Shown here in pieces: positions 50,017-51,708 of a stretch of 64,000 nt of DNA. Origin of the DNA: Candidatus Amesbacteria bacterium GW2011_GWB1_47_19 (lineage in GTDB: Bacteria; Patescibacteriota; Microgenomatia; CAZETR01; Amesbacteraceae); assembly GCA_001002325.1 (NCBI GenBank), contig LCNZ01000004.1, forward strand, positions 3,818 through 67,817. Direction: 5' to 3'. Position numbers and translations under genes: made by a program. The notes below the pieces were generated by a model. That model was given only the letters and a program-made list of their open reading frames with translations, did not search any database and was not told where the DNA came from. Each line of letters opens with the position of its first letter. Within the stretch, counting starts at the first letter, position 1.

Positions 50017-51708
50017 TCATTGCCCGGCAATATCAATTCTAAAATATACCGGTTCAGCTGAAATTGGTCCTCCCCACAGCGTATTTTCAGCACTCCAGGC
50101 CGTCCCGCCACCAGCCAGATGCGACTCCCAAATATCATCAGTTGCCGACGTCGCTGATTCATACATACCGGCCATTACTTCACCGGTATCCGAAACCGCC
50201 TTCAATCTGATAAAAGACGTGTCATCGCTTCCAGTCAACACACTGGCCGACTCCCAGGCCGTCCCTGACCACTGTTTTTTTGATACTCTTGCCCCGTTCC
50301 CCCACAACAGCCACGCTTTTCCCGGATTGGCCGGGTGCGTTTCCCAAATCAAGTCAAAAACCATTGAAGTAATATTTTCCGCAGCCGCCGAATGTTCAGC
50401 GTGCTGGGTAGCCGTGTCCCAAGCACTCCCGGACCATTTTCTAGTATTCAAATCCGCCGCTGCATCCAGCTCTCCGTACATTAATTCATTAGAACCAGGG
50501 CGTGAGACCAGCTTCACCCAATGGGCCACACCTCCGGCCGCCGCGATATCCAACAGAGTCGCCGACGTCAAACTCGTCCCGTTCCAAATCCGGTAATACT
50601 GGTCCGTGGAAGTCGCATCCCCCCACATAAACATCGCCCGGCCGGAAGTCTGCTCATATGCTACGTCGATTGCCTTCTTGGTGGCAATCGAAGCCGATGC
50701 ATCCCACACCGCCACCGCCCCCATATTGCTCCAAACACTTCCTGTCCAAACCATCCCATACACGTCAATATTGTCATCTAATAGTATCAGAGCTATCTCA
50801 TTACTGGTACCAACCGGGTTCTGGGTCATTTCTATCCACTTGATTACCGCTGTGGTCGGCGGTGTCGAAACAGTCAGCGGACTTGACCAACTACTCCCGT
50901 CCCATATCCGATATGCAAAATCGACCGACGTGGAATTAGGCAAATAGGCAAATACTGCCCTATCACTACTTTTTTCATAGGCTACATCAAAAGATCGGGT
51001 AGTCGCATTTGCCGAACCGATGTTAGCCATAAGCGTCGGCGTTCCCCAACTTGATCCGTTCCACACCTGGGCATAAATATTGCCGTTTGCGTCCAAAGTA
51101 CCCAGCACCGCCTCATCCCGGGTCCGGGACGCCTCTAGCTCTACAAAGTTAATATTTCCGCCCACAGTTCCGGCTGACCCTTCCCCGCTCCAAACTGAAC
51201 CGTTCCAGGTCCGATAATACGGCACGTTCGTCGTCTTGGAATACACCATAATGGGCGGGCCGGCTGCAGCGATGGCTGCTTTCCAATTTGTTAAATAAGT
51301 GGACAGCGATACAGACAGGGGTAAAAAGGGTGTAAAACTCCAGTTCACATTGGCGGTAGCTTTCTTGGTATTGGCATCCACTTCTTCCACCACCAGAGTC
51401 CTTGTATACCGGCTGTCCAGTTCGTTATTTGCCGCCCCGTTATACTCCCAGACTCCCGTTGATCCGTTTCTTCTCAAACCCGTCCCGGCTGTATTTGCCA
51501 ATTCCGAAAAGGACCGGTTTCTGATCGACCTGGCCGCCTCCACCCCTTCCTGGGCATAATTAACTGCCTCTACCCGTTCTTTGGCTGACCGGTTAAAATT
51601 CAAAGCGCTTATCAGGCCGATAATTCCCCCCGTGGCAAAAATCACAAATAAAACAGCCGCCAGAAGTACTTCCAATACCAGATATCCCTTTTTAATCCCC
51701 CTTTTCAT
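50017..51708 (-). CDS. Prepilin-type N-terminal domain fused to a roughly 8-repeat beta-propeller-like domain (putative pilus tip adhesin)
   Basis: MKRGIKKG/YLVLEVLLAAVLFV (Glu+5), then eight copies of Y-x-R/Q-x-W-[NDST]-G-[ST]-x-W spaced about 45-50 aa apart (YYRTWNGSVW, YAQVWNGSSW, AYRIWDGSSW, YGMVWTGSVW, YYRIWNGTSL, NTRKWSGSAW, SKKQWSGTAW, DIWESHLAGGGTAW). Confidence 0.7.
   Translation of the reverse strand: MKRGIKKGYLVLEVLLAAVLFVIFATGGIIGLISALNFNRSAKERVEAVNYAQEGVEAARSIRNRSFSELANTAGTGLRRNGSTGVWEYNGAANNELDSRYTRTLVVEEVDANTKKATANVNWSFTPFLPLSVSLSTYLTNWKAAIAAAGPPIMVYSKTTNVPYYRTWNGSVWSGEGSAGTVGGNINFVELEASRTRDEAVLGTLDANGNIYAQVWNGSSWGTPTLMANIGSANATTRSFDVAYEKSSDRAVFAYLPNSTSVDFAYRIWDGSSWSSPLTVSTPPTTAVIKWIEMTQNPVGTSNEIALILLDDNIDVYGMVWTGSVWSNMGAVAVWDASASIATKKAIDVAYEQTSGRAMFMWGDATSTDQYYRIWNGTSLTSATLLDIAAAGGVAHWVKLVSRPGSNELMYGELDAAADLNTRKWSGSAWDTATQHAEHSAAAENITSMVFDLIWETHPANPGKAWLLWGNGARVSKKQWSGTAWESASVLTGSDDTSFIRLKAVSDTGEVMAGMYESATSATDDIWESHLAGGGTAWSAENTLWGGPISAEPVYFRIDIAGQ

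Follow-up and report, generated by a model that had tools for sequence, protein, structure and literature searches.

The stretch of DNA analysed here, hereafter the window, comprises 64,000 nucleotides of contig LCNZ01000004.1 (positions 3,818 to 67,817 of the forward strand) of Candidatus Amesbacteria bacterium GW2011_GWB1_47_19, a member of the Patescibacteriota. Its minus strand carries, at 50017..51708, an open reading frame (ORF) of 563 amino acids (aa) plus a stop codon, whose product joins a pilin-like N-terminal module to a predicted eight-bladed beta-propeller and is called the target in what follows. The original prediction, made from the sequence, had described this protein, without giving its strand, as a minor pilin fused to a propeller and as a candidate pilus-tip adhesin; we computed its architecture, conservation, synteny and fold neighbours. 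An artefact of assembly or fusion was rejected, because more than 110 full-length homologues exist and the identical 563-aa product has been called independently, with the same neighbours, in at least 24 public contigs. The gene is divided as follows.

50017..51708, minus strand: complete coding sequence of the modular minor pilin, 563 aa plus stop (ORF list, public gene calls, 114 full-length homologues)
51685..51708, minus strand: class III (prepilin) leader peptide, aa 1-8 (MKRGIKKG), with Gly-1 at its end (Gly8/Glu13 conservation; N_methyl matches of relatives)
51259..51684, minus strand: mature pilin module, aa 9-150, with a hydrophobic alpha1 helix at about 11-65, a beta-sheet head at 73-140 and a linker at 141-152 (AlphaFold2)
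50020..51258, minus strand: eight-bladed, Trp-rich, acidic beta-propeller module, aa 151-563 (AlphaFold2, Foldseek)
51193-51258, minus strand: N-terminal completion of blade 8, aa 151-172, strands C and D, velcro closure (DSSP of the model)
51049..51192, minus strand: blade 1, aa 173-220, type A (repeat alignment; hhalign 86-90% to blades 3 and 5)
50890..51048, minus strand: blade 2, aa 221-273, type B (hhalign 95-98% to blades 4 and 8, 72% to blade 6)
50734..50889, minus strand: blade 3, aa 274-325, type A (repeat alignment, hhalign)
50572..50733, minus strand: blade 4, aa 326-379, type B (repeat alignment, hhalign)
50422..50571, minus strand: blade 5, aa 380-429, type A (repeat alignment, hhalign)
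50257..50421, minus strand: blade 6, aa 430-484, type B (repeat alignment, hhalign)
50098..50256, minus strand: blade 7, aa 485-537, divergent, bearing the degenerate eighth motif IWESHLAGGGTAW (motif, alignment, hhalign)
50020..50097, minus strand: C-terminal half of blade 8, aa 538-563, strands A and B (DSSP of the model)

The N terminus of the target, MKRGIKKG/YLVLEVLLAAVLFVIFATGGIIGLI (the slash marks the predicted cleavage site), has the layout of a class III leader, that is, a short basic leader ending in Gly and followed by a hydrophobic stretch of about 20 residues, and possesses both Gly-1 and Glu+5. In the alignment of the 114 full-length homologues (54-73% identity), Glu13 (Glu+5) is invariant and Gly8 (Gly-1) is at least 90% conserved; residue +1 is Tyr in the target and Phe in the family consensus. 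The target itself matches neither PF07963 (N_methyl) nor TIGR02532 at an expectation value (E) of ≤0.1; PF07963 is matched by 12 of 20 family N termini (best E 3e-7) and TIGR02532 by 6 of the 20. The conservation of Gly8 and Glu13, together with the N_methyl matches of the 12 relatives, bears out the prepilin leader (KKG/YLVLEV, with Glu+5) on which the original prediction was built. The pilin-like head that it proposed also appears in the AlphaFold2 model, as the pilin "lollipop" of a 55-residue N-terminal helix (residues 11-65) and an antiparallel sheet (residues 73-140), with a predicted local distance difference test (pLDDT) score mostly >90; the fold class is read from this model and not from a library match. 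The pLDDT falls to 67 in the linker (residues 141-152), and the architecture is that of a modular pilin sensu Raynaud et al. 2021, with a pilin at aa 9-140, a linker at aa 141-152 and a propeller at aa 151-563. Leader conservation and model thus agree with the fusion of pilin and propeller in a single protein.

When the N-terminal modules of 20 family members were run singly against NCBIfam, the best matching named families were ComGE (13/20), PilV (7/20), XpsI (3/20) and GspI (2/20), with every score below the curated cut-off. All four are "I-type" minor pilins, and several homologues of the target carry the Joint Genome Institute (JGI) annotation PilV. We suggest that the pilin module of the target is probably of the PilV/GspI/ComGE type, the matches being sub-threshold and the second position of the gene in the row of minor pilins being consistent with this assignment.

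The propeller region contains the motif W-x-G-x-x-[W/L] seven times, at aa 168, 216, 269, 321, 375, 425 and 480, and an eighth, degenerate copy, IWESHLAGGGTAW, at aa 526-538, with a spacing of 48-55 aa. Shuffles of the repeat region gave a mean of 0.23 motif matches and a maximum of 4 in 20,000. The eight regularly spaced repeats originally described correspond to these seven copies and the degenerate eighth. The AlphaFold2 model, obtained with the family alignment (pLDDT 92.7; block means in the propeller of about 87-98), consists of eight four-stranded units, the last of which is closed by a 2+2 velcro between C-terminal strands (542-545 and 558-561) and N-terminal strands (153-157 and 163-168, as assigned by DSSP). 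Both the blade count and the arrangement of eight blades in one ring are read from DSSP and the repeat alignment. The propeller of about eight blades that had been expected is therefore what structure prediction returns, complete with velcro closure.

Profile-profile comparison of the eight blade alignments with hhalign separates the blades into two classes, since blades 1, 3 and 5 align with one another at 86-97% probability and blades 2, 4, 6 and 8 at 72-98%, except for the pair 6-8 (2%). The joined C-terminal and N-terminal unit aligns as a type B blade, at 93-95% to blades 2 and 4. Based on these two alternating classes, the propeller looks like four copies of a two-blade unit, (AB)x4. Its 413 residues include 23 Trp and no Cys, and its isoelectric point (pI) is 4.55, within an acidic range that holds throughout the family (pI 4.2-5.2, median 4.64). 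Each blade junction bears an invariant Trp pair (W-x-G-x-x-W), accompanied by recurrent conserved Arg and Glu residues.

In a Foldseek search of the PDB, the top 16 matches of the target are Photorhabdus lectins of the PHL/PLL group (PHL, PLL2, PLL3 and PLL5; E 1.5e-11 to 7e-10, probability 1.00, template modelling score 0.67-0.71, target-normalised in the Foldseek sense), with 11-14% identity in the structural alignments. Next come the six-bladed fucose lectins AAL, RSL, AFL and AOL, and further down the list the sialidases NanA and NanC and the glycoside hydrolase (GH) propellers BT3686 and GH74. PilY1, pyrroloquinoline quinone (PQQ) enzymes and tachylectins are absent from the top 50 PDB matches, and the target does not match PF05567 (PilY1). 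This agrees with the view in the original prediction that the protein is not PilY1-like and, where tectonin, PilY1 and PQQ propellers had been proposed for comparison, the nearest solved folds are instead those of PHL, PLL, AAL and RSL. A search of BFVD returned generic propellers only.

RSL has a W-x-G-x-x-W motif like that at the blade junctions of the target. The PLL/PHL "bangle" lectins and the AAL/RSL lectins, as the closest solved folds, share with the target four-stranded blades carrying a W motif, and their sugar sites lie between blades and are each formed with two Trp, which the target resembles at the level of the motif (Trp pair, Arg and Glu). In PHL, fucose is held between blades in a pocket made by two Trp (PMC5584973). 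The blade numbers differ, with seven in PLL/PHL, six in AAL/RSL and eight in the target; unlike the target, these proteins are soluble lectins without a pilin module, and sugar binding by the target is a candidate property only. Weak, sub-threshold matches to DUF2510 (Pfam, E 0.007-0.04) occur only in the Nitrospirota and Thermodesulfobacteriota homologues (locus L023, aa 521-535; locus L024, aa 303-323). They coincide with the Y-R-x-W-D-G-x-x-W hairpin, which may mean that DUF2510 is related to the blade junction as a domain of one hairpin.

The target belongs to a pilus gene cluster located entirely on the minus strand, which comprises, in the order of transcription, a PAS histidine kinase, three response regulators, PilB, PilC, a 143-aa pilin, the target, a 161-aa pilin, a 124-aa protein, the major pilin and a LytR_C protein.

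56102-57430, minus strand: PAS histidine kinase (Pfam)
56077-54899, minus strand: three stand-alone, single-domain CheY-like response regulators in a row, immediately upstream of pilB (Pfam)
53217..54902, minus strand: PilB/GspE assembly ATPase (PF00437, E 5.6e-129, plus MshEN)
52133..53215, minus strand: PilC/GspF platform protein (PF00482, E 1.8e-57)
51705..52136, minus strand: upstream minor pilin, 143 aa, GspH/ComGD/FimT-like position (TIGR02532, E 4.9e-4; weak GspH and ComGD matches)
49530..50015, minus strand: downstream minor pilin, 161 aa, GspJ/PilW position (PF07963, E 1.5e-6; 161 aa in public assemblies)
49159..49533, minus strand: 124-aa pilin-like protein, GspK/PilX/ComGG position (sequence, conserved synteny)
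48630..49121, minus strand: candidate major pilin, 162-163 aa (PF07963, E 7.9e-9; sub-threshold GspG, 2e-7)
47591..48589, minus strand: final gene of the cluster, encoding a 332-aa membrane protein with LytR_C as its C-terminal domain (PF13399, E 1.1e-9)

The placement of the gene between minor pilins inside a pilus operon, as first described, is confirmed by the 143-aa pilin before it, the 161-aa pilin after it and pilB-pilC upstream. The ATG of the target overlaps the stop codon of the 143-aa pilin gene (ATGA) and the 161-aa pilin gene begins 1 nt past the stop codon of the target, showing that the genes are tightly coupled. A 210-aa ORF listed at 49530-50162, which overlaps the 3' end of the target by 146 nt, is an over-extended version of the 161-aa pilin, the real start of which is the ATG at 50015 (MKKGFTLVE...) according to public gene calls. 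The 124-aa protein (MKHKG/FAALS...) has a G/F cleavage-like site with Ser instead of Glu at +5, and matches neither N_methyl nor any other family. A missing Glu+5 is a hallmark of the tip subunits of the GspK/PilX/ComGG type. The cluster thus contains four minor pilins after PilB-PilC and before the major pilin, in an order that fits the canonical H-I-J-K row of the type II secretion system (T2SS), of Com systems and of type IVa pili (T4aP).

The arrangement histidine kinase-response regulator-response regulator-PilB recurs in loci of Daviesbacteria, Moranbacteria and Saccharibacteria and, with a kinase and response regulators next to pilB, this suggests phosphorelay control of the pilus. The LytR_C protein that closes the cluster is weakly conserved at the same position in loci L001 and L003, and might stand in for alignment proteins of the PilM/N/O type. 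A C-terminal LytR_C domain is found in three separate membrane proteins of the window, all on the minus strand (47591-48589, 58395-59198 and 23390-24226). The GC skew is negative in all 4-kb bins of the window, in the second half of which the long ORFs are nearly all on the minus strand.

Among the candidates scored, 513 homologues of the target were found at E ≤1e-3. The top 120 are 53-73% identical and nearly all full-length, and at least 118 clusters at 90% identity have near full-length coverage, making the family widespread in environmental Patescibacteria. The gene order from the histidine kinase and two response regulators through PilB, PilC, the 143-aa pilin, the target and the 161-aa and 124-aa proteins to the major pilin is wholly or partly conserved in Daviesbacteria, Woesebacteria, a metagenome-assembled genome (MAG) named as Moranbacteria and many Saccharibacteria MAGs, the closest named loci being those of Daviesbacteria and Woesebacteria (60-62%); sample names resemble those of aquifer metagenomes. 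No other protein of the operon is as well conserved in the Saccharibacteria loci as the target, which has 51-56% identity to the window protein, against 41-46% for PilB, 31-35% for PilC and 27-42% for the other pilins. The two parts of the target differ in turn, with median identities of 65% for the propeller and 35-38% for the pilin module, and column conservation is 0.77 in the propeller versus 0.52-0.58 in the pilin part. The unusual conservation of the propeller is easier to reconcile with a conserved ligand or partner than with a host-specific receptor.

The propeller also occurs outside this pilin family. A HMMER scan with the propeller only, over 1.84 billion representatives (50% clustering), returned 1,753 proteins at E ≤1e-3, of which 366 also reached E ≤1e-30; giant proteins with up to 19 matched stretches are among them. 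Some propeller-bearing proteins also carry CBM96, fn3 or Big_13 domains, partners that point to extracellular, carbohydrate-related contexts. A PilX-like pilin N terminus devoid of Glu5 opens at least about 20 of the 149 top representatives. In such PilX-type fusions from Nitrospirota, Thermodesulfobacteriota and Gammaproteobacteria (loci L023-L025, L027 and L029), which are unannotated, the propeller is 40-52% identical to that of the target over aa 153-561. Three of them, each with a homologous propeller and each the fourth gene of an H-V-W-X row, are located as follows.

L023, 9233-11275, strand not stated: PilX-like pilin-propeller fusion
L027, 9278-11320, strand not stated: PilX-like pilin-propeller fusion
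L029, 4168-6111, strand not stated: PilX-like pilin-propeller fusion

In the Nitrospirota loci L023 and L027, the genes run in the order PilC, major pilin(s), a 185-190-aa pilin, a 143-147-aa PilV-like protein, a 183-202-aa pilin, a 680-aa PilX-like protein with the propeller, and PilM-N-O; PilX_N is matched only weakly by the Nitrospirota fusions (E 0.025). The order is similar in L029, which comes from a Gammaproteobacteria MAG. This last locus has two tandem PilX-like genes, followed by a second set of minor pilins and by a 1413-aa protein. Like the target, the PilX-type fusions display a homologous propeller on a minor pilin of the H-V-W-X row within a type IV pilus (T4P) locus. Unlike in the target, the carrier is a Glu5-less pilin in the PilX/GspK position and about 200 additional aa are inserted before the propeller, and the hosts are diderms possessing PilM-N-O. 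The presence of the same propeller on two types of tip-complex subunit, I-type and K-type, would be expected if its job is done at the tip.

In Bathyarchaeia (L030, 7381-9057; L031, L035 and L037), the propeller stands behind a hydrophobic N terminus resembling a membrane anchor, and in a Nanoarchaeia MAG (L040) it opens a 1658-aa protein. These archaeal propellers, at 27-41% identity, make the family cross-domain in its distribution. In some Saccharibacteria and Paceibacteria, the propeller lies within proteins of 1,400 to 5,000 aa. One Saccharibacteria MAG encodes, directly after PilB-PilC, a 1467-aa protein with two tandem propellers and fn3 (L026, 7042-11445), and there are proteins of 5,000-7,900 aa with up to 18-19 matched repeat stretches (L032, 5630-21244; P0123 and P0126).

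A functional precedent is PilX2 of the T4P-2 system of the oral Saccharibacterium Nanosynbacter lyticus TM7x, described by Grossman et al. 2025 as a minor pilin with a seven-bladed RCC1 propeller, the deletion of which halves host binding and also alters the number and length of the filaments (PMC12206443). We recovered a TM7x-like locus 3 from metagenomes via a primer published in that study (PMC12206443); it encodes, in this order, PilZ2 (163 aa), PilV2 (155 aa), PilW2 (275 aa), PilX2 (576 aa) and PilA2 (141 aa). The PilX2-like protein (L044:2936-4663) matches RCC1 (PF00415, E 8e-45) and lacks Glu5; the target does not match RCC1. Between the pilins of the window and those of TM7x locus 3, BLASTP aligns only the N-terminal helices. 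Orthology of the target and PilX2 was rejected given a BLASTP E of 8.1, an hhalign probability of 2.3% and different propeller families. PilX2 bears seven RCC1 blades on the fourth, Glu5-less, PilX-like pilin, whereas the target bears eight blades, unrelated in sequence, on the second, Glu5-bearing, PilV/GspI-like pilin, and its operon includes pilB, pilC and a two-component system, unlike that of PilX2. As judged from these sequence comparisons, the target is an analogue and not an orthologue of PilX2.

Modular pilins, in which a binding module is grafted onto a pilin module, are established and have been argued to be exposed at the tip, and Raynaud et al. predicted further ones with a second module devoid of database signature (PMC8179133). 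The target shares the design of Streptococcus sanguinis PilB (vWA) and PilC (ConA-like lectin) (PMC8179133), and of CofB and TcpB, namely a small pilin module, a short linker and a bulky module, which these proteins probably present at the tip of the filament. It differs from them in having an eight-bladed propeller without a Pfam family and a Patescibacterium as host, and in that its binding is only predicted. PilY1/PilC of Pseudomonas, Neisseria and Myxococcus likewise associate a propeller with the tip or priming complex of T4aP minor pilins and have roles in adhesion, as we propose for the target; however, PilY1 is not a pilin and its propeller belongs to PF05567/IPR008707, whereas the target is a covalent pilin-propeller fusion without that family. 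Minor pilins act together with PilY1 to prime the pilus, at the tip of which they are located (PMC8833165). Our literature search found no paper on the target family or on the PilX-type fusions. The design principle is thus known from modular pilins and PilX2; neither the propeller family of the target nor its location on a pilin of the PilV type has been described.

On balance, we lean towards the view that the target is a tip-displayed modular minor pilin with a lectin-like binding module, where the terms "adhesin" and "tip" would follow from operon order, bulk, analogy and domain distribution; as a hypothesis, the pilus-tip adhesin of the original prediction is thereby supported. In the mechanism that we infer, which involves cleavage, tip assembly and lectin-like binding, a prepilin peptidase would cut after Gly8 and the mature protein would then enter the core of the filament by its hydrophobic alpha1 helix, which bears Glu+5. 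By analogy to the priming complexes GspI-J-K of T2SS and PilVWX(+PilY1) of T4aP, the target and its three neighbouring minor pilins would form a filament-initiating complex that stays at the tip; anywhere else, a module of about 45 kDa would not fit. A linker of about 10 residues would bear the propeller, whose inter-blade Trp pockets could provide multivalent, lectin-like binding and would thereby tether the cell, by the tip of its pilus, to a conserved ligand, probably a glycan, that a host cell envelope or a surface presents. We propose a lectin-like module because the nearest folds, PHL/PLL and AAL/RSL, bind sugars in inter-blade pockets with two Trp. A role in binding at the tip is supported by the functional precedent of TM7x PilX2, a propeller pilin needed for host binding (PMC12206443).

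Several observations weigh against a lectin-like tip pilin. Among the ORFs scanned in the 64-kb window, none was recognised as pilT, pilM or pilD, and no gene for a peptidase A24 (prepilin peptidase) was recognised in the window by motif. The isolated pilin module found no significant pilin match in a Foldseek search against the PDB, with levivirus coat proteins first (E 0.05) and EpsI at rank 43 (E 1.2), probably owing to the truncation of the solved pilins and to the weight of the long helix in the comparison. The pocket geometry was derived in the same way as the blade count, from DSSP and the repeat alignment. Neither the full-length profile nor a single-blade profile found a match in PDB profile searches, with no sequence homology to any lectin; the propeller alone matched nothing in Pfam at E ≤10, PF07938 included; and the blade profile, when compared with RSL by hhalign, reached a probability of 1.9%, with only the W-x-G motif aligned. 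The lectin likeness is therefore one of fold and motif only, and propellers are a generic scaffold. Furthermore, a propeller more conserved than PilB is unusual for an adhesin of variable hosts, and a structural or partner-docking role fits equally well.

The main rival takes up this last point and sees in the target a PilY1-like structural or regulatory component, which would cap the priming complex or act as its conserved hub, would be needed to start or stabilise the filament or to counter retraction, and might also dock variable adhesins or sense calcium or force. The contrast between a propeller that keeps about 65% identity and the divergence (28-50%) of its carrier and of the adjacent minor pilins would suit a conserved partner inside the complex, and the C-terminal propeller of PilY1 has been seen as a "carrier" module on the minor-pilin tip complex (PMC8179133). 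Added to this, minor pilins and PilY1 prime assembly (PMC8833165), and filament number and length changed upon deletion of pilX2 in TM7x (PMC12206443). However, the absence of a PF05567 match and of PilY1 from the top 50 Foldseek matches speaks against such a kinship, the probable partners, that is, the neighbouring minor pilins, are themselves poorly conserved, and the occurrence of the same propeller in non-pilus surface proteins and in membrane-anchored proteins of archaea argues for autonomous binding. We thus consider a PilY1-like role rather unlikely. It also seems improbable that the cluster builds a short pseudopilus or a Com- or T2SS-like device, with the target as a subunit near the cell surface or a membrane-anchored protein whose propeller acts at the envelope, for example, for interaction with the wall or extracellular polymeric substances (EPS): the order ATPase-platform-H-I-J-K does resemble that of T2SS and Com operons, the major pilin and the target have sub-threshold matches to GspG and ComGE, respectively, and neither PilT nor PilM was seen among the window ORFs scanned, but all matches to named families are far below their cut-offs, the Nitrospirota counterparts reside in canonical T4aP loci with PilM-N-O, and Patescibacteria are known to make long T4P (PMC12206443).

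An enzyme displayed at the tip, such as a glycoside hydrolase, a sialidase-like protein or a lyase that modifies the host envelope, is called to mind by the lower Foldseek matches NanA, NanC, BT3686 and GH74 and by the invariant acidic residues E176, E199, E245, D311, D452, E456, D495 and D496. Yet the best fold matches are non-enzymatic lectins, no catalytic family is matched, and the conserved residues recur blade by blade rather than as a single active site, so that we judge this very improbable. Least credible to us is that the target serves as the DNA receptor of a competence pilus, in the manner of ComZ of Thermus, itself a modular minor pilin. ComGE is the best named family of the pilin module, and Patescibacteria are naturally competent, with T4P implicated in uptake (PMC10187176); on the other hand, T4P-2 is reported to be dispensable for competence in TM7x (PMC12206443). 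The acidic character of the propeller, which holds across the family with the pI range and median given above, led us to set the DNA-receptor idea aside.

We therefore return to our preferred reading, a minor pilin that displays a lectin-like propeller at the tip of the pilus. To our knowledge, how ultrasmall episymbiotic Patescibacteria find and hold their hosts is largely unknown, and PilX2 of oral TM7x is the only genetically supported candidate for a pilus adhesin so far. The target family represents a second, unrelated pilin-propeller design, and its wide distribution, its conservation above that of the pilus motor and the propeller that it has in common with diderm tip pilins and archaeal surface proteins qualify it as a concrete and clonable subject for work on binding. 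Beyond the pilus, the propeller defines a large domain family (1,753 representatives at 50% clustering) without a sequence relative in Pfam or the PDB. We propose, as a tentative extension that is more doubtful than probable, that this propeller, with its two-blade unit repeated four times, is an undescribed, autonomous and unusually conserved domain for extracellular binding, which moved horizontally across phyla and domains, was captured at least twice by tip subunits, of the PilV/GspI type in Patescibacteria and of the PilX/GspK type in Nitrospirota/Proteobacteria, and recognises a near-universal envelope glycan or polymer. If this is true, the propeller would be the primary, broad-specificity "first contact" receptor-binding module for host finding in Patescibacteria.

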